The notes below the pieces were generated by a model that saw only the letters and a program-made list of their open reading frames with translations, did not search any database and was not told the DNA's origin. A stretch of DNA of 32,000 nucleotides from Halomicronema hongdechloris C2206. GTDB lineage: Bacteria; Cyanobacteriota; Cyanobacteriia; Phormidesmidales; Phormidesmidaceae. The translations under genes were made by a program, and so were the position numbers. Each line of letters begins with the position of its first letter. The stretch's first letter is position 1. Location of the stretch: positions 360,001 to 392,000 of the forward strand of contig NZ_CP021983.2 of NCBI RefSeq assembly GCF_002075285.3, given 5' to 3'. Of the stretch, positions 1-23,890 are shown in pieces.

Positions 1-621
1 GGCGTGACGCCGGGTTTCACCCAGATGCAGATTCTCTATCGCGTAGTGCGGAGGCACCTCCTGTTGGGTGCGAGCCCCGAAGACGCTTGCAGGTTGGCCA
101 AGTACGAAGCCAGCTTTGGTGGCACCATGCGCGGGAATCTCGTTCGGATGCTGGACGAGCTCGGGGTGCCGGAACTCCTCGAGGTCGCATCCACCGCCGA
201 TCTCTTTGGTTCCAGTTCCCATCTTCTGCACACCACTTCGGCTGTTCGGTACCCGACGTTCCTCCACGGGCAGAACTACACTGGCAGTCAGCCGCGGCTC
301 GTGAGGTCCGCCTTCTTGATGCGATACGTTCGGGACGTTCTTGCGCCGGAGCTGTCCCGGCTCCATGCTGCAGTCTTCGTTCCACTCGGCAAGAGCGTCG
401 CCGAGGCCTTGGAGCTACTGGAGACCGAGCAGCGCATCCCGGCTGGTCGAACGCTACATGGATTCCCACATCCATCGGGCGCGAACGGTCACCGCGCGCG
501 GCAATTCGAGAAGGGGAAGCCCGCGATGAGGCGGCGGTTCGAGGAGATCTTGTGTGGAGGTGCCTCGGCGGGCGCTGTCCAACAACAGCATGCAGCGGAC
601 GGCGCTGCGCGCCGCCGCTGA
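1..621 (+). CDS. Uracil-DNA glycosylase superfamily-like protein, copy A, 5' end cut by window edge
   Basis: The reading frame is open from base 1. Its 205 aa are identical to the C-terminal 205 aa of ORF 6380..7183. UDG-superfamily-like motifs GVTPGF (motif 1, GxxPG type) and HGFPHPSGANG (motif 2, HPS type). Confidence 0.7.
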   Translation, partial: GVTPGFTQMQILYRVVRRHLLLGASPEDACRLAKYEASFGGTMRGNLVRMLDELGVPELLEVASTADLFGSSSHLLHTTSAVRYPTFLHGQNYTGSQPRLVRSAFLMRYVRDVLAPELSRLHAAVFVPLGKSVAEALELLETEQRIPAGRTLHGFPHPSGANGHRARQFEKGKPAMRRRFEEILCGGASAGAVQQQHAADGAARRR

Positions 622-636
622 TGCCACACGTTAGGC
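577..636 (+). other. attC-type recombination site (60 bp) of the UDG-like cassette, copy A
   Basis: Inverse core GTCCAAC (577-583, fits RYYYAAC) and core GTTAGGC (630-636, fits GTTRRRY). The arm GCAGCGGACGGCGC pairs with GCGCGCCGCCGCTG, leaving one unpaired A in the 5' arm. The site overlaps the stop codon of the ORF. Confidence 0.75.
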
Positions 637-664
637 GGCGCTCCGCGCACTCGGAGGTACGACC

Positions 665-955
665 ATGGAGCTCGTATTCGCCCTACTCGTTGTCGCGATT
701 CTCGCTAGCCTGCCTGCAGCCGTGCTCGTTGTTGGCGTCTTCACAGCTCACGCCAGGCCCGACTCGCCTCTGCTTCGGCACTGGCGGCTCGTTGCCACCG
801 TCGGTTTCTCGGCCTGGGCCTTGCTCACCCTGGTCTCGCACCTCTCCGACGCCCCTGGCTACACGGGCATCGGTTCCGGTCTTGGCATTCTCCTTTTGGT
901 GTTCGTCTTTATCGCCCGCTCCAGAGCTTCCACTCTCTCCTCGGGCACGGCATAG
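665..955 (+). CDS. Small hydrophobic membrane protein (96 aa, about 3 predicted TM segments), single-gene cassette
   Basis: ATG is preceded by GGAGG about 7 nt upstream. Three hydrophobic stretches (LVFALLVVAILASLPAAVLVVGVF, LVATVGFSAWALLTLV, GLGILLLVFVFIA). The ORF is bounded by attC sites on both sides. Confidence 0.55.
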   Translation: MELVFALLVVAILASLPAAVLVVGVFTAHARPDSPLLRHWRLVATVGFSAWALLTLVSHLSDAPGYTGIGSGLGILLLVFVFIARSRASTLSSGTA

Positions 956-976
956 CCGCCCAGGGTGCATCGCGCC

Positions 977-1145
977 GCCTAACAAGGCGCTGCAGCTGAC
1001 GAGCGCCACGGGAGTCGAATCGGTCCAACGCCGCCCAAAGCGCGCTCCGCGCGCAGGGCGGCTCGTGCCAGCTGGCGGCCACCTCCTGTGGCACAATCGG
1101 GGCTCCACCAGCGGCGCTCGCAGCTGAGCGCCTGATCCGTTAGCT
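977..1145 (+). other. attC-type recombination site, unusually long (169 bp)
   Basis: Inverse core GCCTAAC (977-983) and core GTTAGCT (1139-1145). The 5' arm GGCGCTGCAGCTGACGAGCGCC pairs with the 3' arm GGCGCTCGCAGCTGAGCGCC, leaving two unpaired bases in the 5' arm. The central part holds an extra GC-rich hairpin (GCCGCCC..GCGCGC / GCGCGC..GGGCGGC). Confidence 0.65.
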
Positions 1146-1246
1146 GTCTGCCTACAGCAAGCATCTACCTGTGGACGCTCCTGGAAGTTTGGGGCATCTT
1201 AGACTTATGCCTTAATCAGTTACCGCTGGAATGGAGTAGCTAGAGA

Positions 1247-2395
1247 ATGAGTAGCTCTGCTTACGAAGGGTTCAACGAAGAGAGCTTCTTCGACCGTGTT
1301 GAAGCTCAGTTTGTTAAGAAAGCCCCTAATTTGTCTCAGACGCTTAACATTGCCGTCATTGGAAAAGTCAGTGCGGGGAAAAGTTCCTTAATTAATGCCT
1401 TGCTTAAGCTGAGTCGTCGGCAAGCGTTAGAAATTGCTAAAGTTGGTGCCACATCAGGAGTAACTACTGATCTAACAATCCTCAAGCTAGATGAAAAAGT
1501 ACATCTTGTCGATTCCCCTGGGCTTGATGATGTTCGTACTGAGAATAGCGAGCTAACAAAGAAGTTTCTTAAGCATATAGATGTTGGTATATTTGTAGTA
1601 ACTGGCTCCTCAGATTCCTCACAAAAGAAAAACTTAGATGATTTGCGACAGCATTGCGATGCTATTTTTGTCGTCCTAAATAAAATCGATGAATGGGATG
1701 ACTTAGATCCATCTGTCTTAGAAGATATTATTCAACAGTGGAAGACTGATCTTGAAGTAGAGAAAATATACCCAACTTGTGCAAAGGGTTACGATCCTAA
1801 AAGTCGTCTCCCTACAATGGATATCAGAGGTGTTGCAAAACTCCGGAATGACATTGGGGATTTCCTTGAAAAAAAAGGTAAAGACCTATTGTTAGCTAGG
1901 CACATGGCCCAGAAACAATCTCATGCGGTTAAAATTATTGCAGTAGCTTTAGCCGCTGTAGCTGGAGAAGCTTTTATACCTGGTAGTGCCATTTATATTA
2001 CAGCTACGCAAGGAGCCGCAATTGCATCTCTGTCTTATCTTTATACTGGCGAAATCCTATCTGCTGAATCGACCCTAAGCATTTTACCTAAATTCGTTGC
2101 TGAGACAGCAGGCTCTAATCTTTTTCTGTTTGTAAAATCCTTCTTGCCTCCAACAGGTATCGTCGATGTCGCTGCTGCTGGAGTTGCAGTTGTCATTACG
2201 CTAGCATTGCTTGCGACAGTTAATTATCTACTTTCCAATGGAGAGGAGCTGGAGCAGGAAGAACTTCTGCGCTCCAAGTTTAGAACATATCATCAGCAAG
2301 CAAAAGATACTTTTAAGGAGTTGGCATTAACTGACGTGCGTGATCTTCCTAGCTGGACAAAACTTGTAAACAAGTTTCTTGGCAGTCGTCAATAA
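1247..2395 (+). CDS. P-loop TRAFAC-class GTPase (MMR_HSR1/YfjP-like) with a hydrophobic, DUF697-like C-terminal region
   Basis: G1 GKVSAGKS (Lys45), G3 DSPG and G4 NKID motifs occur in canonical order. The C-terminal ~150 aa is rich in Ala/Gly/Ile hydrophobic segments (AVKIIAVALAAVAGEAFIPGSAIYI..., GIVDVAAAGVAVVITLALLATVNYLL). GGAG-like RBS before the ATG. Confidence 0.8.
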   Translation: MSSSAYEGFNEESFFDRVEAQFVKKAPNLSQTLNIAVIGKVSAGKSSLINALLKLSRRQALEIAKVGATSGVTTDLTILKLDEKVHLVDSPGLDDVRTENSELTKKFLKHIDVGIFVVTGSSDSSQKKNLDDLRQHCDAIFVVLNKIDEWDDLDPSVLEDIIQQWKTDLEVEKIYPTCAKGYDPKSRLPTMDIRGVAKLRNDIGDFLEKKGKDLLLARHMAQKQSHAVKIIAVALAAVAGEAFIPGSAIYITATQGAAIASLSYLYTGEILSAESTLSILPKFVAETAGSNLFLFVKSFLPPTGIVDVAAAGVAVVITLALLATVNYLLSNGEELEQEELLRSKFRTYHQQAKDTFKELALTDVRDLPSWTKLVNKFLGSRQ

Positions 2396-2474
2396 TTGAT
2401 GTTCCTTACTTATTAGACCATATTCTGGATTTGACAATTTAATTGGGTTATTCTGAAAGCATTTTTAGAGTTAG

Positions 2475-3332
2475 GTGATGGAAGTAATGCCTAAACAGTA
2501 TCAACCTCAAGACCTGTTCGAAATTGTAGCTGATACCGTTATCAGTATAAAGACAAAGGATGGTTCTGGTAGTGGAGTTATTTTTAACAAAAATGGTATC
2601 GCGGTTACTAACAGACACGTTGTTGACACTAATACTAAAGCTCTAGTTGGCTTGAGAAACGGCGATAAGTTTATTGGTAAAGTCATTCGTTCGTATTCAG
2701 ATATTGATTTAGCCTTTGTAAAATTTGACTTAACTAAGTCTTCATTGCTCAGATCTTCTCTAATTTTTTCTGGTGAAGACTTTAGCCCATGTTGCCAGCG
2801 GAAACTTAAAGTTGGGGAGCCTGTGTTTGCAATTGGTCATCCAATGGGTCTTGACTATACCCTGACTCAGGGCATCATTAGTTCTATAGAAAGAACAATT
2901 GAGGCGGCTAAGTTTATTCAAATAGATGTGTCTATTAATCCCGGCAACAGTGGTGGTGCCCTTTACACAGCTTATGGAGAATTGGCTGGTATCAATACAA
3001 TGGGTTACGTGAATTCAGAACATCTAAATTTTGCCATACCCATTGATGAAGTGGTTAAACGATATTCTACTTGGCTTGAAGAAGAGGCTAAAGGATTTAC
3101 ACGCTATTGTGCAGTGTGTGGTTTCTCATCCATTGACGATAAATATTGTGAGAATTGTGGTGCTTCTCTCAAAAGAGATTCTAGTCAAGAAGATGATTTT
3201 TTAAGCAAATCAGATCTTGCAGAAGACGTGAAGATGAGTATGAAAAGTGATGCCTTGGCAACTTGCAAAGCTTGCGGGACATCTGTTTCATCAAGTCTCA
3301 AATATTGTTCAACCTGTGGTTCTACTTTATAA
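2475..3332 (+). CDS. Trypsin-like (S1/DegP-type core) serine protease without signal peptide or PDZ, with two C-terminal zinc ribbons
   Basis: Catalytic triad context TNRH48VV, D78LAFVKF and NPGNS159GGAL. The C-terminus carries CAVC-x11-CENC and CKAC-x11-CSTC. The start may be the ATG at 2478. Confidence 0.85.
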   Translation: MMEVMPKQYQPQDLFEIVADTVISIKTKDGSGSGVIFNKNGIAVTNRHVVDTNTKALVGLRNGDKFIGKVIRSYSDIDLAFVKFDLTKSSLLRSSLIFSGEDFSPCCQRKLKVGEPVFAIGHPMGLDYTLTQGIISSIERTIEAAKFIQIDVSINPGNSGGALYTAYGELAGINTMGYVNSEHLNFAIPIDEVVKRYSTWLEEEAKGFTRYCAVCGFSSIDDKYCENCGASLKRDSSQEDDFLSKSDLAEDVKMSMKSDALATCKACGTSVSSSLKYCSTCGSTL

Positions 3333-3349
3333 AAGTGAGTTGAGGTAAT

Positions 3350-3856
3350 ATGGGAATTTTTGGGGATTTAATTGAAGGGGTTGGTAGCCTTCTAGGAAAC
3401 AAGCAAGATAACGAGGTTTCAGTTGGAAGCTATATTCAAATTGTAGAAGCTTTACTTAAAGAACTTGGCGTAGATATCAAAGAGTCTAGACTTGACCTTG
3501 AATCTAAAAATGACAGGGGTTGGGTAATTCAGAAAGGTAGTGCCCAGATCATTATTCTGATAGCAGAAAATGATGAAGACGATGATCCTACTATAGAAGT
3601 GGTTTCACCCATTCTGAAACTTCCCTCTCAAAACATTCTGCCGTTTTATCGCCGATGCCTTGAACTCAATAGAGGTTTGATTGGATGTGCTGTTTGTGTC
3701 AGTGAAGATAAGGTTTTGGTGAGAGCAGAAATACCTCTCAGCGGTCTAAGTCTGGAAAGTATTGCATTGATGATCTTTAATGTCGCAGGAGCGGCAGATC
3801 AACTAGATGATGAACTAGCAGAAGAGTTCGGTGCTAAGTTATACGATGAATCCTAA
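3350..3856 (+). CDS. YbjN-like (type III secretion chaperone-like fold) small acidic protein
   Basis: ATG lies 17 nt after the protease stop, with a GAGG RBS. The sequence pattern resembles the YbjN family (WVIQKGSAQIIILI...IEVVSPILKLP...LPFYRRCLELNRGLIGCAVCV...DKVLVRAEIPL...ADQLDDELAEEFG). The call is by eye only. Confidence 0.6.
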   Translation: MGIFGDLIEGVGSLLGNKQDNEVSVGSYIQIVEALLKELGVDIKESRLDLESKNDRGWVIQKGSAQIIILIAENDEDDDPTIEVVSPILKLPSQNILPFYRRCLELNRGLIGCAVCVSEDKVLVRAEIPLSGLSLESIALMIFNVAGAADQLDDELAEEFGAKLYDES

Positions 3857-3971
3857 ACCACAAATTGACCGTGGTTGATTGCTAAGACTATCACTTGGTA
3901 GCAATTTCATTTTGGATAGACAATATTCACGTTGCCCCTATTTTATTGTGCCCCTTAGCCGAGTCCAAACT

Positions 3972-4250
3972 ATGCAAATCACCCTCGACTTACCTGAAGA
4001 ACTGCTTCAATACTTTGATCAAGATCACCTTTCTCGTGAAATTTTAGAGGCATTAGCGGTACAAGCCTATCAAACTGAAAAAATTACTAGTGCTCAAGTT
4101 GGTCGTATTCTGGGTCTACCCTCTCGCTGGGCAGTGGATAGCTTTTTGAAGCAACATTGTGCCTATTTACATTACGATGAGACAGACCTGGAGAGCGATC
4201 GTGAAACCCTTCGCCAACTTCGTGCGAATCGAGCTAATAGCGCCTCATGA
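3972..4250 (+). CDS. UPF0175-family antitoxin-like protein
   Basis: The ATG at 3972 is preferred over the TTG at 3879. MQITLDLPEELL...EALAVQAYQTEKITSAQVGRILGL is typical of UPF0175. It overlaps the downstream gene by 4 nt (ATGA). Confidence 0.75.
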   Translation: MQITLDLPEELLQYFDQDHLSREILEALAVQAYQTEKITSAQVGRILGLPSRWAVDSFLKQHCAYLHYDETDLESDRETLRQLRANRANSAS

Positions 4251-4717
4251 TCGCCGTCTCTGATACTTCGCCAGTTAATTATTTGCTGCTGATTGACCAG
4301 ATTGATCTGCTTCCTCGCTTGTTTCAGCAAATCATCATTCCCGATGTGGTTCGGAAGGAAATGCTTGATCCCTTGGCACCACCTGCCCTTCAACAATGGA
4401 TTACTCATCCTCCTTCTTGGCTTACAGTCCAAACTGTTTCCGGGGTTGATACAACCCTCAATGCCCTTGATCCAGGAGAACAAGCTGCCATCACCCTTGC
4501 TCAAACCTTGCCAGCAGATTTGCTGATTATCGATGAACGATTGGGAAGACGTGTCGCTAGCGATCGGGGAATCCCGATTATCGGCACCCTTGGAATTCTA
4601 GATGATGCCGCAAGTCAAGGGTTGATAGAACTAGCAGATGCAATCGCTCGATTGCAACAGACGAATTTCCGTATTTCTCGTCGCATTATTCAAACATTGC
4701 TGGAAAATAGAGCATAG
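4247..4717 (+). CDS. DUF3368 / PIN-like nuclease toxin-like protein
   Basis: N-terminal VSDTSPVNYLLLI and C-terminal DPGEQAAITLAQ...LLIIDERLGRRVA...GIPIIGTLGIL match the DUF3368 PIN-like pattern. It is translationally coupled to the UPF0175 gene. Confidence 0.75.
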   Translation: MIAVSDTSPVNYLLLIDQIDLLPRLFQQIIIPDVVRKEMLDPLAPPALQQWITHPPSWLTVQTVSGVDTTLNALDPGEQAAITLAQTLPADLLIIDERLGRRVASDRGIPIIGTLGILDDAASQGLIELADAIARLQQTNFRISRRIIQTLLENRA

Positions 4718-4747
4718 TACAAGTAGGTAGGGTCGGCGAGGAAAGCC

Positions 4748-4833
4748 AGCTAACACTGCGTGGCAGCGGACGGGCGAAAGTCACTGGTTTTAAGTTCAAG
4801 GTTGCCTGCCGCCGCTGCACTTCACCGTTAGCT
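4748..4833 (+). other. attC-type recombination site (86 bp)
   Basis: Inverse core AGCTAAC (4748-4754) and core GTTAGCT (4827-4833). The arm GCAGCGG-A-CGG pairs with CCGCCGCTGC, with an unpaired A. It is near-identical in layout and length to 6258..6343. Confidence 0.75.
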
Positions 4834-4910
4834 GTCATACGCTCTAGGCTCAGCGGGTGCTACCAACACGAATGAATGTGTAGACAGTTTGCTCAGTTAA
4901 GCTAAAATTC

Positions 4911-5687
4911 ATGAATGCTGCTGGTCAGGATGAGCGATCACTGATAATGGAGACTTCTCTAGTTCATTACGTTGAAAAGACTGATCTAATCAACAAGACA
5001 GAAATTGAAAAAGTTATATTGTTAGCCTCTTACTATCAAAGAAATGGTCAGAATGATTTTGAGTTCACAATAGAGTCTGTGTGCAATTGGTTTGAAACTT
5101 TAGGTTTACATAAACCGAATAAGTCAAGACTGAAACAAAAAATTAGCAAATCTCGTTCTTTTGTTAAGGGGAAAACTAAAAATTCTTATAGAATCCACGC
5201 CAGCGAAATTCAAGCTATTTATAAAAAATATCCTTTTTTGGAAGAGCCATCTGAGGAAATACTATCAACTGATACGATTTTGCCCGCTCCCCTATATGAA
5301 AATACACGTGGATATATAGAATCTTTATCCAAACAAATCAATGCCTCCTACGAGAATAATATATTTGATGGATGTGCAGTTTTAATGCGAAGACTTCTAG
5401 AGATATGCTTAATTCACTCATATGAACATCAAGGCATTGATTCAGAAATAAAAGACTCTCAAGGGAATTATGAAGTACTTTCTAAAATTGTTTCTAATGC
5501 TTTGAATAATTCGAAGCTCTCCCTTTCAAGAAATACCAAAACTTGCTTGGAGGATTTTCGTGCGATTGGGAATTATTCTGCACATAAGATTTATTATAAC
5601 GCAAGAAAAACGGATATAAAGAAGGTGGTTTTAGAGTATAGGGCAACGATTGAGGAGTTACTGTACAAAAGTGGAATTCGAACATAG
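4911..5687 (+). CDS. Hypothetical protein with an N-terminal wHTH-like module and a C-terminal DUF4145-like domain
   Basis: The C-terminal pattern CAVLMRRLLEICL...LEDFRAIGNYSAHKIYY...IEELLY resembles DUF4145. The N-terminal ~100 aa is similar to the C-terminus of the next ORF. Confidence 0.6.
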   Translation: MNAAGQDERSLIMETSLVHYVEKTDLINKTEIEKVILLASYYQRNGQNDFEFTIESVCNWFETLGLHKPNKSRLKQKISKSRSFVKGKTKNSYRIHASEIQAIYKKYPFLEEPSEEILSTDTILPAPLYENTRGYIESLSKQINASYENNIFDGCAVLMRRLLEICLIHSYEHQGIDSEIKDSQGNYEVLSKIVSNALNNSKLSLSRNTKTCLEDFRAIGNYSAHKIYYNARKTDIKKVVLEYRATIEELLYKSGIRT

Positions 5688-5691
5688 GGCA

Positions 5692-6228
5692 ATGGAACCA
5701 AGTATTTCAGCGAAGGCGAAAATAAATTTCAAAACTGGCGAGGTTGAATTCGAAGGATCGGAACAGTTTGTAGAAAATCAGCTTAATAATATAGATACCA
5801 TTGCAGAATATATGGCGCTTCTTATATCTAATAATTCTACAGATGAAGTAGACGAAATTGAGCAAGAAGAGATAGCGGCTGTTGCAGAAGAAGAAGAAGA
5901 AAAGTTGGTGACAGTTGGTGAGCAAGATCTTCATGTTCCAGATACTTTTGGTGAGTGGTTTCATGGCTTTAAGGATGATGCCAATGATCTCGACAAGGCG
6001 CTTATCACAGCTTTTTATGTGCAAAAACAAGCACCAGATAATGACTTCAAAACATCTGAAGTTAATCAGTCTTTGCAAGATCATGGCATTAAGCTTTCAA
6101 ACCCCTCAAGCTCATTGAAGCGATTAGCCTCTAAAAAACTACTTTTTCAAACCCGGAAAGTAGGAAAGCTAAAATACATGAGAGTATCTGCAGACGGCGT
6201 TAAGCATCTTAAAACGCTACGAAGATAG
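5692..6228 (+). CDS. Hypothetical acidic protein with a C-terminal wHTH-like module
   Basis: The ATG at 5692, 4 nt after the upstream stop, is preferred over the overlapping TTG at 5650. There is a poly-acidic tract (DEVDEIEQEEIAAVAEEEEE). The C-terminus ALITAFYVQKQAPDNDFKTSEV...LKRLASKKLL aligns by eye with residues ~35-100 of ORF 4911..5687. Confidence 0.55.
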   Translation: MEPSISAKAKINFKTGEVEFEGSEQFVENQLNNIDTIAEYMALLISNNSTDEVDEIEQEEIAAVAEEEEEKLVTVGEQDLHVPDTFGEWFHGFKDDANDLDKALITAFYVQKQAPDNDFKTSEVNQSLQDHGIKLSNPSSSLKRLASKKLLFQTRKVGKLKYMRVSADGVKHLKTLRR

Positions 6229-6257
6229 CATTGCTATTCCTAAGTGATCCTAAAACC

Positions 6258-6343
6258 AGCTAACACTACGTTGGTGCGGATGGAACAGAGGTTATCGGTT
6301 AGAGTTCAGGGTTGTCTGCCGCCGCACAACTTCACCGTTGGAC
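6258..6343 (+). other. attC-type recombination site (86 bp)
   Basis: Inverse core AGCTAAC (6258-6264) and perfect core GTTGGAC (6337-6343). The arm GTGCGG-A-TGG pairs with CCGCCGCAC, with the same unpaired A. Confidence 0.75.
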
Positions 6344-6379
6344 AGCGCTCGAACACGATCGTGAAACGCACAGTGCCCG

Positions 6380-7183
6380 ATGAGAGAAGTGCTATCTGAA
6401 CACCTAGCCACGTTCATCCGGTCCCTCCCGGAGAAGCGCGAGTACGCCCGCGACGATCTTCTCGTTCCTGCGCTGAAGGTCGCCGAGGATGCCGACAAGG
6501 GGCTTGCCGTGTACGACGCTCCGTTCGGCTGGGGCAACCAAGAAGCGCGTGTGGCCCTGATTGGCGTGACGCCGGGTTTCACCCAGATGCAGATTCTCTA
6601 TCGCGTAGTGCGGAGGCACCTCCTGTTGGGTGCGAGCCCCGAAGACGCTTGCAGGTTGGCCAAGTACGAAGCCAGCTTTGGTGGCACCATGCGCGGGAAT
6701 CTCGTTCGGATGCTGGACGAGCTCGGGGTGCCGGAACTCCTCGAGGTCGCATCCACCGCCGATCTCTTTGGTTCCAGTTCCCATCTTCTGCACACCACTT
6801 CGGCTGTTCGGTACCCGACGTTCCTCCACGGGCAGAACTACACTGGCAGTCAGCCGCGGCTCGTGAGGTCCGCCTTCTTGATGCGATACGTTCGGGACGT
6901 TCTTGCGCCGGAGCTGTCCCGGCTCCATGCTGCAGTCTTCGTTCCACTCGGCAAGAGCGTCGCCGAGGCCTTGGAGCTACTGGAGACCGAGCAGCGCATC
7001 CCGGCTGGTCGAACGCTACATGGATTCCCACATCCATCGGGCGCGAACGGTCACCGCGCGCGGCAATTCGAGAAGGGGAAGCCCGCGATGAGGCGGCGGT
7101 TCGAGGAGATCTTGTGTGGAGGTGCCTCGGCGGGCGCTGTCCAACAACAGCATGCAGCGGACGGCGCTGCGCGCCGCCGCTGA
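6380..7183 (+). CDS. Uracil-DNA glycosylase superfamily-like protein, copy B (full length, 267 aa)
   Basis: ALIGVTPGF and HGFPHPSGANGH motifs are spaced as in UDG-fold enzymes. It is a GC-rich single-gene cassette between attC 6258..6343 and attC 7139..7198. Confidence 0.7.
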   Translation: MREVLSEHLATFIRSLPEKREYARDDLLVPALKVAEDADKGLAVYDAPFGWGNQEARVALIGVTPGFTQMQILYRVVRRHLLLGASPEDACRLAKYEASFGGTMRGNLVRMLDELGVPELLEVASTADLFGSSSHLLHTTSAVRYPTFLHGQNYTGSQPRLVRSAFLMRYVRDVLAPELSRLHAAVFVPLGKSVAEALELLETEQRIPAGRTLHGFPHPSGANGHRARQFEKGKPAMRRRFEEILCGGASAGAVQQQHAADGAARRR

Positions 7184-7198
7184 TGCCACACGTTAGGC
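6563..7198. repeat. Direct repeat copy B, matching 1..636
   Basis: Same evidence as for copy A. Divergence begins at 7199, the target duplication flanking the IS4-like element. Confidence 0.9.
7139..7198 (+). other. attC-type recombination site (60 bp) of the UDG-like cassette, copy B
   Basis: Identical to 577..636: GTCCAAC ... GTTAGGC. Confidence 0.75.
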
Positions 7199-7205
7199 TT
7201 CTCAT

Positions 7206-8507
7206 GCTGACTGCCTGACACATCTTTTACTCTAGTCGGCAGGATAGAGAGCGGATGCGAGAGAACCAGATTTGGTCGTAATAGTCGTGCTCCGCTTTTT
7301 TGGAGGCAAAACAAGGCTCTGGGTCACGGACTAACAGCGCTATCGGCTCTAGAAGCTGTCGTCCTTTGTGAACGACTCCCTTAAGCCAGCGCAATCCAAT
7401 CTTGAGGTAGCTGAGTCCGCGCCGCCAATGAGGGTCTACCTGCTGCCTAAGGCCTTCAATCTGAACCGCCATGCCAGTGGTTGTTCCATAAAGCAGTGCA
7501 ATAGCGGCCACTAGATAAAGTCGCTCAAGGGCTACCGCTGAGCGGATTCGGGAGTCTTCAATCTCGAAAGCTCCTGATTTGCTATCCAAAAACAGCTCCT
7601 CTACTCTGAAACGCAACGCGTAGCGCCAGAGCGTCTGCAAGGTAGGCGGTTCATCGGTGATGACGGCCCAAGGCTCTTTGACGCCTTTAAGCGTCGCCAG
7701 CACGATGTTGCACTGGTGGGAGCCATCCTGCCACAGCCTGACATTTCGATAGAAAATCGCCTCGCCTTTTGGCGGCCACAGATATCTCACTTCAGTCGGA
7801 TAACGCCTTGGCCCGTGCAGCAGGACATCGCAGGGCACTCGCAAGCAGTAGTGCCAACTGCTCGCTTGCAACCAACTCATCAAGTCGTGGTTGGCAAAGC
7901 CTCGGTCGGCCAGCAGCATTAGGTTCGGGTACTGCCTCAAAAGCCACCGGGCACGGCGCAGCAAAGGGCGGTATTCTTCAAAAGCCACCGTTGCACTGCC
8001 ATGCTCAAGCACTCGCCACAGTAGCGGGACTGCTCGTCCGCAGCACACCACTGACAGGTGAATCATGCAGTATTGGTTCCACAGCACCGTTGTATCGAGT
8101 GCCAGATACAGCCGCTTGCCCTCCCACTGCCTCAGCGTCAGCAGCACCAGCGGTAGGTAGAGCTGATTTATCTCAACGAGCCGGTTGCCGAAAAATCGAT
8201 GCCACCGCCGCTCGAAGCTTTGCGCTTTGTTGGCACGGCTTATCACGTAGGACTCCCAAGCAGGTGGGCTCAGCTCACCACTACAAATCAGGGCGGTGAC
8301 CATCCAAGATAGGGCTTTGATATGGCGCAAGTCCCGGTAGTGGCTGTATTGACGCAGATAGTGCAGCAGTTGATCATAGAGCTGGGTAGAGCTTGGCATG
8401 TCGCTTTGGCCGTCAGTGTGGTAACTACAGCCTCGCACACGAGCTCTGCCTATTTCCTCTTTGTCCTGATATGACTACCTTTCAGCTACTTCTGTCAGGC
8501 ACTCAGC
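7206..8507 (-). mobile_element. IS4-superfamily insertion sequence (~1.3 kb)
   Basis: Terminal inverted repeats GCTGACTGCCTGACA (7206-7220) and the reverse complement of 8493-8507, GCTGAGTGCCTGACA (14/15 match). It is flanked by the direct repeat TTCTCAT(G) at 7199-7205(6) and 8508-8514(5). It encodes a single DDE transposase ORF. Confidence 0.8.
7227..8438 (-). CDS. IS4-family DDE transposase
   Basis: 403-aa ORF (390 aa from the ATG at 8399). LALDTTVLW, LLADRGFANHDL and later acidic motifs are typical of IS4/IS701-like DDE transposases. Confidence 0.8.
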   Translation of the reverse strand: MRGCSYHTDGQSDMPSSTQLYDQLLHYLRQYSHYRDLRHIKALSWMVTALICSGELSPPAWESYVISRANKAQSFERRWHRFFGNRLVEINQLYLPLVLLTLRQWEGKRLYLALDTTVLWNQYCMIHLSVVCCGRAVPLLWRVLEHGSATVAFEEYRPLLRRARWLLRQYPNLMLLADRGFANHDLMSWLQASSWHYCLRVPCDVLLHGPRRYPTEVRYLWPPKGEAIFYRNVRLWQDGSHQCNIVLATLKGVKEPWAVITDEPPTLQTLWRYALRFRVEELFLDSKSGAFEIEDSRIRSAVALERLYLVAAIALLYGTTTGMAVQIEGLRQQVDPHWRRGLSYLKIGLRWLKGVVHKGRQLLEPIALLVRDPEPCFASKKAEHDYYDQIWFSRIRSLSCRLE

Positions 8508-8514
8508 TTCTCAT

Positions 8515-9800
8515 GGGCACCTCGAAAAATAGCCAGAGCGATCTCAGTATGAGATCATAAGGTCGGTTTTGTTGAAGCACGCAGGCCATGGGACAGCAGG
8601 GATTCTGGGATATCGAAGAGCGCCAGCAAAAACTGGAGCAAAAGAAGGCGGTACTGAATCGGTTGAATCAACTGGTGCCGTGGGAGACCTTTCGTCCGAT
8701 TCTGATGCAGATTCGAGAGAAACCGCGCAAAAGCCAGGCCGGTCGTAACCCCACCGATGTCCTGTTACTCTTCAAGATGCTGGTGCTGCAAAAGCTATAC
8801 AACATCAGCGATGACGAACTGGAATATCAGGTCAACGACCGACTGTCCTTCATGCAATTTCTCGGTTTGGGGCTTGAGGATAGAGTCCCGGATGCAACGA
8901 CGGTGTGGCTCTTCCGAGAACAGTTGCAGCAGCACGGCTTGGTGGAGGCGTTGTTCGAGCAGTTTGGAGCCTATCTGCAAGGGGCAGGCTATGCCGCCAA
9001 GGATGGGCAAATTGTGGATGCGACCTTGATTCCAGTTCCCAAACAACGCAACACCCGTGAGGAGAACCAAACCCTCAAGCAGGGTGAGGTTCCCGTTGAG
9101 TGGCAAGAGACCCCTCATCAGCTCGCGCAAAAAGATGTTGACGCCCGATGGACGAAGAAAAATGGAACGTCCCACTACGGCTACAAAAACCACATCAATA
9201 GTGATGCCGGCTTTAAGCTCATTCGCCGTTACAGCGTCACCGATGCGTCGGTCCATGACTCGCAGGTCTTGGGCGAGTTGCTCGATGCGGATAATAGCGG
9301 CGATGGACTTTGGGCCGATAGTGCGTATCTCTCCGTGCTGATTGTCGAGGTGCTGAAATTGATAGGGTTTGAGCCGCATATAAATGAACGGGCCTATCGC
9401 AATCGCCCCTTAAGCGAGGCCCAGAAAACCGCGAATCGAGAGCGCTCCAAAACCCGTGCCAGAGTGGAGCACATCTTCGGAGATGTCGTCACCAGCATGG
9501 GTGGCAAGGTGGTGCGCAGCATCGGGTTAGCCCGTGCCCAGACCCAGCTAGGTCTGAAAAATCTGGTGTATAACCTGAAGCGGTTTGTGTGTCTCGAAAC
9601 CCAACGTGCTGCATCGGCTGAACTGGCAAGATAATCGGACCTAAAGCCGGGAAATCGACTTAAACGTGGTCTTCCAACCCTATTTTTTTGTCAAAATGGG
9701 AAGCTTTTTTCGGTGGAATGTCTCGGACTCTCTTTGAGTCACCTTGACGGTCTCAAATGAGACGCCATTAGCTAAAGAAAACTGATTAATCGAGGTCCCC
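8515..9800 (+). mobile_element. IS5-family insertion sequence, copy 1 (1286 bp)
   Basis: IRL is GGGCACCTCGA and the reverse complement of the right end is GGGGACCTCGA. The 4-bp direct repeat TCAT lies at 8511-8514 and 9801-9804. It appears identical to 11791..13076. Confidence 0.85.
8588..9634 (+). CDS. IS5-family transposase (DUF772 N-terminal domain plus DDE domain)
   Basis: The 348-aa sequence ...GRNPTDVLLLFKMLVLQKLYNISDDELEYQVNDRLSFMQFLGL... is the typical IS5 N-terminal region. It is identical to ORF 11864..12910. Confidence 0.9.
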   Translation: MGQQGFWDIEERQQKLEQKKAVLNRLNQLVPWETFRPILMQIREKPRKSQAGRNPTDVLLLFKMLVLQKLYNISDDELEYQVNDRLSFMQFLGLGLEDRVPDATTVWLFREQLQQHGLVEALFEQFGAYLQGAGYAAKDGQIVDATLIPVPKQRNTREENQTLKQGEVPVEWQETPHQLAQKDVDARWTKKNGTSHYGYKNHINSDAGFKLIRRYSVTDASVHDSQVLGELLDADNSGDGLWADSAYLSVLIVEVLKLIGFEPHINERAYRNRPLSEAQKTANRERSKTRARVEHIFGDVVTSMGGKVVRSIGLARAQTQLGLKNLVYNLKRFVCLETQRAASAELAR

Positions 9801-9845
9801 TCATGTTATAGGAAAATACAAAATAACAACCTTTAAGCACTAAAG

Positions 9846-11048
9846 ATGTCGTCAATTTGGATAATTCTTCTGGACGTTTCCAGTTCTATGAATGAAGGCT
9901 TCTCTGGCAGAGGAGCAACTGATCCTCTAGCAGAACGAGGTGCTTGGCGAACAAAGCTGGAGGCTGCTTCAGAGCTTTTACTGCGCCAGATTGCTTCTAT
10001 ACGTGATCAAGATGTTGCAGTTATTAAGTTCGCTGATCAGGCTGAAAAGATTTTTCAAGGACATCAAAGTGCTTTCTCTCCATCTTCCTTTAGTGTCCTT
10101 CAAGGTGGTGGACGTACTAATCTTACTGCGGCGCTCAATATTGTTGCGATTGATTCTTCGTTCAATCGATATCGTGCACTTAGTGTGCTTATACTGTCAG
10201 ATGGATTAGCAAATATTGGGAACCCTCAAATAGAAGCTGAGCGAATAATTGAGAGATACCCTTTTGCACGAATAGACACCATCCTGATTGATGAAACTGA
10301 TCAAGGACGAGCAATTGCTGAAAGTGTCTCTATTAATGGTTCTGTTCGAAATGCTGTCTCTATTCTACAACTTCAAGATTCTGTTGAGAGAGCCCGTGTA
10401 GCTGGTCTTCAGCAAGAGATTAGTGGTTTAGCGCAGCGACAGCTTGCACTTGAGAGTGAACTGTCTGCAATCGCCAATGTTTCTACACCGACATTACTAA
10501 CTGTAACTTCTCAAGTCTCTCTCACGCCTTCTTCCTTGCGAGATCAAATCTCACCATTTCTCACTGGAATAGAAGAGATACAAGAGGTTGCATCTACTGC
10601 GTCAGGTGCTTCTTATCGAGGTCGTATACGTTCTATATCACAAAGCTCTCCTGTCTCGATCTCTTTATCAGGTCTGCGTGAAGCAGTAGAGCTTTTTCTT
10701 GAGTGGATAGTACCTTGGCGTAGAGAGCATGTTGAGCAGATGCTAGTGCTTCAACGAAGGCGGGAAGAGCTTGAACAAAGGAAGCTTGAAATGGATTTAG
10801 GTCGTGAGAATGCAGAGCTTGATGCTCTTGAGCTTTCAAATCGCCGTCTTGAACTTGAACTTCTTACTTCCAAGCTAGAACTTGCAGAAAGATTACTCAA
10901 TCATCTTGACCCTAACGAGAATATGTCGGGATCTGAGCGAGTTGCTTATGTTCAAAAGCTTGTTGGTAGCATAGATCGTCTCGCAAGTAATAGACTCGAA
11001 TTTCAAGCATCCGGCCCAGGCTTTGAGTCCAGGTCAAATATCCAGTAA
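9846..11048 (+). CDS. von Willebrand factor A (vWA) domain protein with a long C-terminal coiled-coil
   Basis: MIDAS motif D10-V-S-S-S14, followed by GGRTNLTAAL and ILSDGLAN. The C-terminal ~200 aa are heptad-like and Leu/Glu-rich (LELELLTSKLELAERLL). Confidence 0.75.
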   Translation: MSSIWIILLDVSSSMNEGFSGRGATDPLAERGAWRTKLEAASELLLRQIASIRDQDVAVIKFADQAEKIFQGHQSAFSPSSFSVLQGGGRTNLTAALNIVAIDSSFNRYRALSVLILSDGLANIGNPQIEAERIIERYPFARIDTILIDETDQGRAIAESVSINGSVRNAVSILQLQDSVERARVAGLQQEISGLAQRQLALESELSAIANVSTPTLLTVTSQVSLTPSSLRDQISPFLTGIEEIQEVASTASGASYRGRIRSISQSSPVSISLSGLREAVELFLEWIVPWRREHVEQMLVLQRRREELEQRKLEMDLGRENAELDALELSNRRLELELLTSKLELAERLLNHLDPNENMSGSERVAYVQKLVGSIDRLASNRLEFQASGPGFESRSNIQ

Positions 11049-11112
11049 TAATAATGATTTCAGCTTGCAAACCAGAGAGGTATAAGTGCTAACAATTATA
11101 GAACCTTGGTAT

Positions 11113-11202
11113 GCCTAACAATTTCTTGCAGGCGGACGCGAAGGCAAAAGGTTCGGACTTTTCCGAAAGATGGTCTCGCGCCGCTGAAGATTACCGTCAG
11201 GC
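11113..11202 (+). other. Degenerate attC-like site (90 bp), last of the array
   Basis: Inverse core GCCTAAC (11113-11119). The arm GCAGGCGG-A-CGCGA pairs with TCGCGCCGCTG. The core position reads GTCAGGC (11196-11202) rather than GTTRRRY. Confidence 0.55.
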
Positions 11203-11790
11203 TACTCAATAACCACCAGAGGATTGGCCATGGGTACTTTTGCACAGAAATCAAGGGCAACTCAGCAGATTACATCTGCCAAGCCTGCGATCAAGCCTAC
11301 GATATCCAGTCGGATCCAGCGGCATGAGTTGCCCCCGCAGTGTCATCGTCCACATCCAGGAGCACTACAGACGAAACTCACGATCGACCAGCCTGGAGAC
11401 ATCTATGAACAGGAGGCAGATCGTGTTGCGAACCAAGTGATTCGCATGCCTGATCCCAAGCTGCAGCGCACCTGTGCCTGTGGTGGTGGCTGTCCCCAGT
11501 GTCAGGCACAGCGACCGGAGCAGAAACCAATGCGCCTACAACTGCGGCGCCTTCAGTCGAACAACGAGGAACAGATTTCAGCACTGCCCATCGTCCACGA
11601 AGTATTGCGCTCACCCGGCCAGCCCCTGGATGCCCACACCCGCAGCTTTATGGAGCCACGTTTTGGGCATGATTTCAGCCAAGTGCGAGTGCACACGGAT
11701 GCGAAGGCGGCAGAGTCAGCACAAGCGATCAATGCGCAGGGGTATACAGTGGGCCAGCACGTTGTCTTGGATAACGACCGATTATCTTCA

Positions 11791-13076
11791 GGGCACCTCG
11801 AAAAATAGCCAGAGCGATCTCAGTATGAGATCATAAGGTCGGTTTTGTTGAAGCACGCAGGCCATGGGACAGCAGGGATTCTGGGATATCGAAGAGCGCC
11901 AGCAAAAACTGGAGCAAAAGAAGGCGGTACTGAATCGGTTGAATCAACTGGTGCCGTGGGAGACCTTTCGTCCGATTCTGATGCAGATTCGAGAGAAACC
12001 GCGCAAAAGCCAGGCCGGTCGTAACCCCACCGATGTCCTGTTACTCTTCAAGATGCTGGTGCTGCAAAAGCTATACAACATCAGCGATGACGAACTGGAA
12101 TATCAGGTCAACGACCGACTGTCCTTCATGCAATTTCTCGGTTTGGGGCTTGAGGATAGAGTCCCGGATGCAACGACGGTGTGGCTCTTCCGAGAACAGT
12201 TGCAGCAGCACGGCTTGGTGGAGGCGTTGTTCGAGCAGTTTGGAGCCTATCTGCAAGGGGCAGGCTATGCCGCCAAGGATGGGCAAATTGTGGATGCGAC
12301 CTTGATTCCAGTTCCCAAACAACGCAACACCCGTGAGGAGAACCAAACCCTCAAGCAGGGTGAGGTTCCCGTTGAGTGGCAAGAGACCCCTCATCAGCTC
12401 GCGCAAAAAGATGTTGACGCCCGATGGACGAAGAAAAATGGAACGTCCCACTACGGCTACAAAAACCACATCAATAGTGATGCCGGCTTTAAGCTCATTC
12501 GCCGTTACAGCGTCACCGATGCGTCGGTCCATGACTCGCAGGTCTTGGGCGAGTTGCTCGATGCGGATAATAGCGGCGATGGACTTTGGGCCGATAGTGC
12601 GTATCTCTCCGTGCTGATTGTCGAGGTGCTGAAATTGATAGGGTTTGAGCCGCATATAAATGAACGGGCCTATCGCAATCGCCCCTTAAGCGAGGCCCAG
12701 AAAACCGCGAATCGAGAGCGCTCCAAAACCCGTGCCAGAGTGGAGCACATCTTCGGAGATGTCGTCACCAGCATGGGTGGCAAGGTGGTGCGCAGCATCG
12801 GGTTAGCCCGTGCCCAGACCCAGCTAGGTCTGAAAAATCTGGTGTATAACCTGAAGCGGTTTGTGTGTCTCGAAACCCAACGTGCTGCATCGGCTGAACT
12901 GGCAAGATAATCGGACCTAAAGCCGGGAAATCGACTTAAACGTGGTCTTCCAACCCTATTTTTTTGTCAAAATGGGAAGCTTTTTTCGGTGGAATGTCTC
13001 GGACTCTCTTTGAGTCACCTTGACGGTCTCAAATGAGACGCCATTAGCTAAAGAAAACTGATTAATCGAGGTCCCC
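11791..13076 (+). mobile_element. IS5-family insertion sequence, copy 2 (1286 bp)
   Basis: Same ends as copy 1. The 4-bp direct repeat TTCA lies at 11787-11790 and 13077-13080. ORFs in three frames are identical to those of copy 1. Confidence 0.85.
11864..12910 (+). CDS. IS5-family transposase (copy 2)
   Basis: The protein is identical to ORF 8588..9634. Confidence 0.9.
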   Translation: MGQQGFWDIEERQQKLEQKKAVLNRLNQLVPWETFRPILMQIREKPRKSQAGRNPTDVLLLFKMLVLQKLYNISDDELEYQVNDRLSFMQFLGLGLEDRVPDATTVWLFREQLQQHGLVEALFEQFGAYLQGAGYAAKDGQIVDATLIPVPKQRNTREENQTLKQGEVPVEWQETPHQLAQKDVDARWTKKNGTSHYGYKNHINSDAGFKLIRRYSVTDASVHDSQVLGELLDADNSGDGLWADSAYLSVLIVEVLKLIGFEPHINERAYRNRPLSEAQKTANRERSKTRARVEHIFGDVVTSMGGKVVRSIGLARAQTQLGLKNLVYNLKRFVCLETQRAASAELAR

Positions 13077-13895
13077 TTCAGGAAGTGGACGTGCCCGTTT
13101 TTTGATGGCCCATGAATTGGCCCATGTTGTGCAGCAAGGTGGTGCTCTTGCCAGGCATGGAGACCACAGGATTGAACCGGCAGCCCAGGGATCCAGCCAT
13201 AGAATCCAACGACAGTCCCCATCGCCGCCTACTAGCGAGAGAGTCTGGGGACTACCCGTCACACGCAGTATGTGTGGATGCCGCCAGCAGGTGCGGGATG
13301 GAATTAATTGGGCCAATACCGCAGCGGCGACCTATGCCGCCTGTGACGTTCCGGCCAATCCGACCAACGTCGATGTTGAAGCCTGCTTCGATGCCGCCCA
13401 TCCCGGTACTACCGTAGCTGGCTCCACCAGTGCCAGTGGCACAATGACGCTACCACCGCCATCGGCTGATCCCTGCCAGCGCATCGATGACAAAGCTACC
13501 TTCGTCCATGAGACCATGCATGCTCGCCATACGAATGACATCGCGCGGGCTCAAGGAGCAGCTTTCTTCCGCGAGTGGAAGCGGCTGGCAGGAGTCCCCA
13601 ATCGGCTAGATACCCTGCGGGCTACCTTCCCCGCTGAAGTAGCAGCCTTCGAAGCCCAGTGGCAGGACGGCCACGACTGGGCCCAGGACGAGGTGAATTC
13701 TTACCGCTGGGAGCGTCGGTTTTTGCAAGCCGCCCTGGCTGCCCTGAATCGTATCTGTCCGTAGCCTTGAACCTTATCGGTTGCTCTACTAAAGCTGTGG
13801 GACCCGATGCTGTCTATGCGCCGACCCTGTCTTCTATCCACCGTCACCTTCCCGGCACCATGGAGCAGTCCCTGGTAGCGTGAGAGGACCCCACT

Positions 13896-14201: not shown

Positions 14202-14324
14202 GCCCAACTGTTCTGCTGACCTGACGTTCTGTTAAGTAGCAGGGCTCGATTAACTGTAAGATGGCGAACGCTGTACCCCATCCCCAGCATAGAAAGCGCC
14301 TGTAGTTTGATTCTGCCCAGCTAC

Positions 14325-23270: not shown

Positions 23271-23807
23271 GTGAATAGTATGAATGGTGGTATGGGTAGA
23301 TTCGAACACTGGCTGGCAACGGTTGCTGCTGGCGTGGCCCTAGGGGCGGTGGCGATGGGGGCTGTTCCGGTGCAGGCTCAGGTCGCCTATGGCAGCTACA
23401 TCGGTGCCGGCGCTTCTGTGGGGCTAACCGAAGACGACAATGGCGATGGCGATGGTATCTCCGGGGTGATTGCTGGTCGCTACCGATTTCTAGAGGCTCC
23501 CATATCGGCTCGAGCTCAGGCGCTAGTGTTTGGTGACTCTTTTGCCATCGTGCCCACGGTTTCCTACGATGTTCCTTTGAATTGGAACACTGACGCCTAT
23601 CTCGGGGCTGGGGTCGCCTTCACTGGCGGCGATGAGCCCTCTGCCGTTGGCGACAAAACTTCCTTCGTGCTACAGCCCGGGGTCGACTACATCATGCCAA
23701 ACAACAACTTAGTGCTGTTTGGCAATGCCATCATTGCCTTCGATGCCTATGAGAATGGCGGTGGCACAGCCCTATCTCTACAAGGGGGAGTGGGGGTTCA
23801 GTTCTAA
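23271..23807 (+). CDS. Small outer-membrane beta-barrel-like protein with signal peptide
   Basis: N-terminal signal-like sequence ending AVPVQAQ, alternating Gly/aromatic beta-strand pattern, and a C-terminal Phe (GVGVQF). The start may be the ATG at 23280. Confidence 0.6.
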   Translation: MNSMNGGMGRFEHWLATVAAGVALGAVAMGAVPVQAQVAYGSYIGAGASVGLTEDDNGDGDGISGVIAGRYRFLEAPISARAQALVFGDSFAIVPTVSYDVPLNWNTDAYLGAGVAFTGGDEPSAVGDKTSFVLQPGVDYIMPNNNLVLFGNAIIAFDAYENGGGTALSLQGGVGVQF

Positions 23808-23890
23808 GCGGGTGGTCAGGATTTGCCAACTTGGACGCAACTGGAACACATGTATTTAATTCCGCTACCATGGCTCAGAAAGCGTAGGGG

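Follow-up and report, generated by a model that had tools for sequence, protein, structure and literature searches.

The first 11,202 nucleotides of a 32,000-nt stretch of DNA from the cyanobacterium Halomicronema hongdechloris C2206 (the window, which throughout means the whole stretch) very likely represent the distal part of an integron cassette array carried on the chromosome. An earlier interpretation made from the letters of the DNA (the sequence-only reading) had proposed an integron-style cassette array with attC sites, its integrase not in view, in a cyanobacterial genome. That proposal passed every test run, and the host is confirmed: by exact look-up the window proteins are locus tags XM38_00333 to XM38_00348, and five copies of HIP1 (GCGATCGC) stand in the window where about 0.5 would be expected. 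The sites have the sequence and the structure of attC, the cassettes are discrete and end at the G/TT point, and near-identical units stand elsewhere beside other neighbours. The array would comprise at least six promoter-distal cassettes in one orientation, each an open reading frame (ORF) or operon with an attC site after it. In single-stranded DNA the bottom strand of attC would fold into a hairpin, on which two extrahelical bases would mark that strand for the integron integrase (IntI); IntI would cut between the G and the TT of the GTTRRRY core, and the cassette would be excised as a circle and re-inserted, normally at attI. The array runs off the start of the window, and the counts of sites and cassettes are lower bounds (at least six).

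The six plus-strand attC-like sites (S1 to S6; Table 1) were all found with the boxes, lengths and coordinates first assigned to them. The outer RYYYAAC and GTTRRRY boxes are present in inverted orientation in 12 of 12 cases, with one-base deviations from the consensus in AGCTAAC (twice) and GTTAGCT (twice). The box plan runs from a 7-nt box through a 6-nt spacer, bulged arms, a stem and a spacer of 6-7 nt to a second 7-nt box, and the inner arms of all six sites share one layout (2 bp, an unpaired base, 6 bp, an unpaired base and at least 3-5 bp) in which 11-13 of 13 arm pairs form, all 13 in S1 and S2. This analysis bears out the unpaired A that had been noticed in the 5' arm, and it adds a second unpaired base, a G (C in S6), six pairs ahead of the A, which had been missed. 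Both unpaired bases are carried by the top strand's 5' arm, with the side and spacing seen in the aadA1, cmlA5 and dfrA14 attC sites, and the arm that carries the bulges is the same as in 10 validated attC sites. Folding of the bottom strands as single-stranded DNA, a check that the sequence-only reading had proposed, does yield hairpins with two single-base bulges. The two 86-bp sites, S3 and S4, had been called paralogues and are 74% identical. Placement is equally regular. Every site lies 3' of an ORF or ORF group, as claimed, with its first base anywhere from 45 nt ahead of a plus-strand stop codon to 65 nt past it; the cassette ORFs had been described as co-oriented, and all cargo ORFs are indeed on the plus strand. 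The sites are clustered on one strand, the largest gaps being 3.6 kb, filled by a five-gene cassette, and 3.9 kb, of which insertion sequences (IS) take up 2.6 kb.

Models of known attC sites find the same coordinates. The reference set held 14 validated attC sites cut from class 1 integron arrays in plasmid records, the aadA1 site being verified by copies at least 99% identical in 1962 plasmids. One covariance model, R1, was made from the trimmed class 1 sites; another, R2, from class 1 sites only, by a model-guided alignment in which the variable centres were kept. Model and profile scans took in all 32 kb. R2 matched five of the six sites at full length, on the plus strand and exactly at the coordinates of the sequence-only reading, with S1 and S5 at 44.7 bits each (E = 1e-8), S3 at 40.1 bits (E = 1.3e-7), S6 at 28.5 bits (E = 7.9e-5) and S4 at 24.5 bits (E = 7e-4); the next-best match on either strand of the 32 kb reached 10.3 bits (E = 1.9). 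The attC-model check that had been asked of the array therefore returned five sites at E <= 7e-4. R1 scored S1 and S5 at 49.9 bits (E = 9e-12), and at 44.7-49.9 bits the two fall inside the range of real sites, 31-76 bits. The failure of R1 on S2 and S4 is uninformative because R1 also misses validated long sites (arr-3, qnrVC4 and dfrA16), and it gives dfrA1 only 14.3 bits.

Likewise, the profile layer of the published cyanobacterial attC model recognizes members of the array. Ghaly et al. 2021 (PMC8352920) built taxon-specific attC models, the cyanobacterial one from 51 sites, with a taxon cut-off of 61 bits (full covariance score) and a sensitivity of 60.8% (supplementary table 1). The profile hidden Markov model (HMM) layer of that model (PMC8352920, supplementary file 3), run with nhmmer, gave S3 38.8 bits (E = 3e-11), S4 28.5 bits (E = 5e-8) and S6 22.3 bits (E = 4e-6), all scores of the HMM layer only, the 61-bit cut-off being one for the covariance score. 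S3 agrees with the cyanobacterial consensus through its centre as well, and the inner boxes of S1 and S5 fit that consensus (TGCAGCGGACGG ... GCCGCCGCTGA) almost exactly, with the centre of about 27 nt absent. The unpaired positions of the consensus are a G and an A, the same as in the window sites. The sequence-only reading would have given way had the element proved to be a dispersed repeat; by R2 and the cyanobacterial profile, the other 20 kb of the window is without it.

The relation of each site to its own cassette provides a further line of evidence. In cassette arrays, the final six bases of a 3' core are part of the next cassette, and therefore the 5' box of a site should pair fully with the core that precedes its own cassette and not with the one behind it, a prediction on which the sequence-only reading had not drawn. 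In five of five cases the 5' box is the reverse complement, at 7/7 bases, of the 3' core of the site before it (the G and the six bases that open its own cassette), and it matches its own in-array 3' core at only 4-7 of 7 positions. Cassettes C1 and C5, for example, begin with TTAGGC, the reverse complement of their own attC box GCCTAAC. Reconstructing the circular form lowered the folding energy at every site tested, from -9.8 to -14.1 kcal/mol (z = -2.5) for S4, from -19.7 to -24.5 kcal/mol (z = -5.3) for S5 and from -18.8 to -21.1 kcal/mol (z = -4.3) for S6. Own-cassette complementarity is supporting evidence, short of proof, because with three core types the permutation probability of a five-of-five match is about 1/30, a value that weighs against reading too much into it.

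The cassettes also behave as units. A 636-bp duplication had been described as ending at the core site, and positions 1-636 do equal 6563-7198 exactly, with divergence immediately 3' of GTTAGGC. The discovery of the same cassettes between the same cores in other genomes had been named as strong support, and C2 and C3 are both present at 97-98% identity in other assemblies beside unrelated neighbours. C2 (window 1138-4831) and positions 7789-11482 of L018, a contig of the metagenome-assembled genome (MAG) GCA_964397305.1, share 98.2% identity over 3694 bp without a gap; the homology starts at CGTTAGCT and stops at GTTAG, the flanks are unrelated, and the L018 copy has a cyanobacterial-type attC site on each side (E = 4e-14 and 4e-11). 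C3 (window 4827-6339) is 97.4% identical over 1514 bp, core to core, to positions 9916-11429 of L024, a JGI metagenome contig, where its neighbours are unrelated to those in the window. The breakpoints of both homologies lie within a few bases of the G/TT points. Because homology runs core to core with different neighbours, C2 (five genes, 3.7 kb) and C3 are single mobile units. Short Logan contigs of other sequencing runs carry C2 at 98.7-99.2% identity as well, one starting at window position 1138 (L001) and one ending at 4752 (L017); ends at cassette borders are expected if the neighbours differ and are suggestive, other contig ends being internal. As a separate observation, four metagenome contigs of conserved context (L020-L023) have a single cyanobacterial-type attC (7259-7343; E = 1.4e-8) just 3' of an Eco57I-like restriction-modification gene, and a UPF0175 and DUF3368 pair 2.4 kb off with no detectable attC.

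Remnants of integrase genes are found in the lineage. The sequence-only reading had made its case depend on an IntI homologue in the genome or its relatives, and a truncated integron-integrase gene does adjoin the L018 array. It is an 86-aa ORF (L018 2085-2345, minus strand) just upstream of the first cassette, an N-terminal integrase remnant that aligns with IntI1 residues 2-72 at 42% identity (tblastn, E = 3e-13) and whose top-ranking family in NCBIfam is TIGR02249, integron integrase (E = 1e-14). The attI-like core GTTAGCC between this remnant and the first cassette is the reverse complement of that cassette's attC box, GGCTAAC, and the gene stops short at an adjoining BrnT-type ORF that has an attC-like box behind it. 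Used as query, this cyanobacterial IntI N-terminal fragment retrieved 33 relatives (P0039-P0071) among 5.8 billion proteins, all of 49-130 aa and from Spirulina, Limnospira, Phormidium and metagenomes. IntI relatives thus exist in the lineage, and every one seen is degraded. The IntI fragment of Phormidium yuhuli has attC sites of the same orientation on both sides, and fragment loci other than that of L018 are L025/L026 8001-8258 and L027/L028. In this cyanobacterial lineage the intI gene seems to have been split by cassettes (L018, Phormidium yuhuli). Upstream of the first cassette of L024 (9780-9925), three direct repeats of ATATGCGGAAA(G/C)T(T/A)TC that end at the core GTTAGCT resemble attI integrase-binding repeats, with intI not detectable upstream.

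Several results weigh against a cassette array in this DNA, and they deserve to be set out together. No integrase or attI lies within the window; that IntI moved these cassettes, and that attI and intI, intact or degraded, stand upstream of position 1, is inferred. No Halomicronema protein is among the 33 IntI N-terminal relatives, though the collection holds H. hongdechloris proteins. S2 is missed by both covariance models, as are validated long attC sites, and the cyanobacterial profile matched only its 5' half (16.8 bits, E = 2.4e-4, HMM layer). The fold of S4 in its array form is weak, and the 3' core of S6 is GTC (GTCAGGC) instead of GTT.

The array bears signs both of recent activity and of decay, the former because one cassette is present twice at 100% identity, the latter because two IS elements lie inside one cassette and the terminal attC is without GTT. 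The two IS elements, in the stretch between S5 and S6, are a small correction to the sequence-only reading; they entered the same 7 bases (TTCTCAT) just 3' of the S5 core, one after the other, and so split C5 near its start. We consider it probable, though by no means assured, that the array belongs among the attC-site clusters without an integron integrase (CALINs) or is a degraded integron, with no intact linked integrase, either as a fossil or with its cassettes moved by an integrase from elsewhere. Nothing in the 20.8 kb downstream of the array codes for a tyrosine recombinase; related arrays hold a truncated intI and the lineage at large only short IntI fragments; the IS elements within a cassette and the terminal GTC core fit the same picture; and in genomes 279 CALINs were counted against 164 complete integrons (PMC4889954). 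The array has more than the two attC sites required of a CALIN. Against this stand the exact duplicate and the near-identical cassettes elsewhere, which argue for recent site-specific movement, and the fact that the absence of integrase was seen on the downstream side of the array only.

A complete and working integron, in which the cassettes are still shuffled and an intact intI and attI lie no more than a few kb upstream of position 1, is a good deal more doubtful. The orientation of the attC sites and ORFs does put attI and intI upstream, the identical duplicate that ends exactly at the core suggests recent excision and re-insertion, cassettes 97-98% identical stand in other arrays, and Cyanobacteria are reported to encode integrons. 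However, the lack of an H. hongdechloris protein among the IntI relatives, the fragmentary nature (49-130 aa) of all those found and the truncated or missing intI of the related arrays examined speak against it, and decay is suggested by the inserted IS elements and by the mutation in the terminal core. An unlikely further alternative is that the cassettes of the lineage are still moving though its own integrase is dead, an unlinked or unrecognised recombinase moving them. Its mobile half is argued from the 100% duplicate and the 97-98% identical cassettes with other neighbours, its dead-integrase half from the 33 relatives that are all fragments and from the gene cut by cassettes in two genomes.

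That the six elements are not attC at all, being instead a dispersed GC-rich palindromic repeat of REP or MITE type or terminators with AAC and GTT ends by chance, is very improbable: like terminators, they form imperfect palindromes at the 3' ends of ORFs, yet two attC-specific models match these sites alone in the whole window, the unpaired bases have the side and the spacing of attC, the lengths and centres of the sites differ in a manner unlike copies of one mobile repeat, and neither five-of-five own-cassette complementarity nor G/TT breakpoints in two other genomes is expected of terminators or REP elements. A loose regular-expression and pairing scan found as many matches in shuffled sequence (28 in the window, about 20 in shuffles) and, not being discriminating, was dropped as evidence. 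Rfam had no family at any threshold on the six sites, which is uninformative either way; no match reached gathering level, and the low-level ones are noise, none of which falls on a site (e.g., sRNA-Xcc1 at 5429-5513, E = 9.5).

Table 1. Sites, cassettes, genes and insertion sequences in the window (positions counted from its first nucleotide; fold, free energy of the bottom strand in kcal/mol and z score)
Feature	Positions	Strand	Description	Fold
attC S1	577-636	+	60 bp; 5' box GTCCAAC; 3' box GTTAGGC; covers last 45 nt of UDG-like ORF	-19.7; z = -3.2
attC S2	977-1145	+	169 bp, long central part; 5' box GCCTAAC; 3' box GTTAGCT; two single-base bulges	-55.7; z = -4.0
attC S3	4748-4833	+	86 bp, cyanobacterial type; 5' box AGCTAAC; 3' box GTTAGCT	-18.8; z = -2.4
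attC S4	6258-6343	+	86 bp, S3 paralogue; 5' box AGCTAAC; 3' box GTTGGAC	-9.8; z = -0.7 (array form)
attC S5	7139-7198	+	60 bp, identical to S1; 5' box GTCCAAC; 3' box GTTAGGC	
attC S6	11113-11202	+	90 bp, last site of array; 5' box GCCTAAC; 3' box GTCAGGC	-18.8; z = -3.1
Cassette C0	1-630	+	3' part of UDG-like ORF (4-621) and S1; cut by window start; GC 63%; exact copy of C4	
Cassette C1	631-1139	+	96-aa ORF (665-955), no Pfam family, and S2; GC 65%	
Cassette C2	1140-4827	+	3.7 kb, five genes and S3	
C2 GTPase	1247-2395	+	Pfam	
C2 trypsin-like protease with zinc ribbons	2475-3332	+	Pfam	
C2 YbjN-like	3350-3856	+	Pfam	
C2 UPF0175 antitoxin	3972-4250	+	Pfam; PADLOC PDC-S70	
C2 DUF3368 PIN-like toxin	4247-4717	+	Pfam; PADLOC PDC-S70	
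Cassette C3	4828-6337	+	Weak DUF4145 protein (4911-5687), 178-aa protein (5692-6228) and S4	
Cassette C4	6338-7192	+	UDG-like ORF (6380-7183) and S5	
Cassette C5	7193-11196	+	vWA-domain ORF (9846-11048; Pfam VWA_2) and S6; about 1.4 kb without IS elements	
IS element	7206-8507	-	DDE_Tnp_1 transposase (7227-8438); inverted ends; 7-bp target duplication TTCTCAT	
IS5-family element, copy 1	8515-9800	+	Transposase (8588-9634); 4-bp target duplication TCAT	
eCIS_core (DUF4157) gene	11230-13764	+	About host GC; not counted as a cassette	

The cargo is varied in composition. The cassettes have a GC content of 32-47% or 63-65%, the neighbouring core genes (starting at about 14 kb) one of about 57%, and such a mixture speaks for a cassette array. 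The sequence-only reading had taken 1146-4833 for an ORF group, and the ORFs are there; they form in fact one five-gene cassette of 3.7 kb. Its view that the cargo looks conflict-related holds in part. PADLOC has a match for the UPF0175 and DUF3368 pair in its defence candidate PDC-S70 (E = 2e-48), but the C2 GTPase resembles LeoA and the C2 protease the RT-Protease_XI protease domain at domain level only, and six proteins (the UDG-like, 96-aa, YbjN-like, DUF4145, 178-aa and vWA proteins) are without a defence match in PADLOC. The C4 UDG-like protein has its nearest relatives, about 70% identical, in MAGs of Gammaproteobacteria (genome-collection scan).

The 5' 45 nt of S1 and S5 (577-621 and 7139-7183) lie within the UDG-like ORF. 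In four Gammaproteobacteria MAG loci (L002-L005), the homologous genes stand in conserved context and are not cassettes; their 3' ends remain similar through the 5' box and the spacer (CCAAACAACTGCATGCAG compared with TCCAACAACAGCATGCAG) and diverge at the start of the hairpin. The L005 homologue keeps the hairpin too, with the GTT core absent. This 3'-end pattern may be relevant to the origin or the decay of attC sites. In L005, a high-GC MAG, the homologue seemed by eye to have attC-like palindromes on its flanks; R2 finds none, and they were not used as support.

Downstream, the array ends at S6, with no attC 3' of it in the window by R2 or the cyanobacterial profile; a candidate terminal attC at 14202-14237 was rejected (9.5 bits, no stem). 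The eCIS_core gene that follows is interrupted by a second IS5 copy (11791-13076; target duplication TTCA), removal of which gives a read-through of 414 aa. The two IS5 copies are identical at 1286 bp, and a cluster look-up returned four H. hongdechloris protein accessions with exactly this transposase sequence. Among the core genes, a 178-aa ORF without a family match stands ahead of a HerA-type ATPase (window 23271-25615; HAS barrel and DUF87; PADLOC HerA, E = 2e-31), and the two could be a two-gene defence pair.

In view of what was already known, the array is a further example and not a new system. Integrons in Cyanobacteria, reported since 2007-2008, are established (PMC4889954, PMC2426708), the IntegronFinder survey that defines CALINs places Cyanobacteria among the integron-bearing phyla (Cury et al. 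2016, PMC4889954), and both integrons and the cyanobacterial attC type are published. A link between this array or an integron and H. hongdechloris was not found in the searchable literature, and Halomicronema is not mentioned in the supplements of IntegronFinder 2.0 or of Ghaly 2021. Knowledge of the integron mechanism is unchanged. What the array does provide is a clean and well-bounded set of cassettes in a cyanobacterium that makes chlorophyll f, together with a demonstration of near-identical cassette exchange between cyanobacterial genomes. Its five-gene, 3.7-kb cassette combines a module of GTPase, protease and YbjN-like protein with a defence candidate of toxin-antitoxin type, and a high-GC cassette has its nearest relatives in Gammaproteobacteria. 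More broadly, the array adds to the view of integrons as stores of accessory, possibly defence, genes beyond the Proteobacteria.

The closest likeness is with the integrons and CALINs of Cyanobacteria themselves. The published cyanobacterial attC profile, 87 positions long, fits S3, S4 and S6, centre included; the cyanobacterial type has the same unpaired G and A and the same CAGCGG-A-CGG / CCGCCGCTG boxes as the window sites; and cyanobacterial integrons likewise hold one-way ORFs with cargo mostly of unknown function. Unlike that type alone, this array mixes sites of 86-90 bp with sites of 60 bp and 169 bp. With respect to class 1 attC sites (aadA5, cmlA5, aadA1, dfrA14), S1 and S5 have the same box order, the same 6/7-nt spacers, a length in the same range (57-70 bp) and likewise two unpaired bases six pairs apart. 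In contrast to the mobile class 1 integrons, the cargo is not antibiotic resistance, and the array is chromosomal, cyanobacterial and without a 5' or 3' conserved segment. Sedentary chromosomal integrons are defined by more than 19 attC sites or by presence in all genomes of a species (PMC4889954), and candidate defence cargo of the kind seen here is a likeness to what has been described for sedentary integrons (bioRxiv 10.1101/2024.07.02.601686). Finally, the array resembles the Vibrio superintegron in having paralogous attC sites within one array (S3 and S4), duplicated cassettes and a toxin-antitoxin pair inside a cassette, and differs from it in that six sites are seen in the window and that these are far less uniform than the Vibrio repeats.

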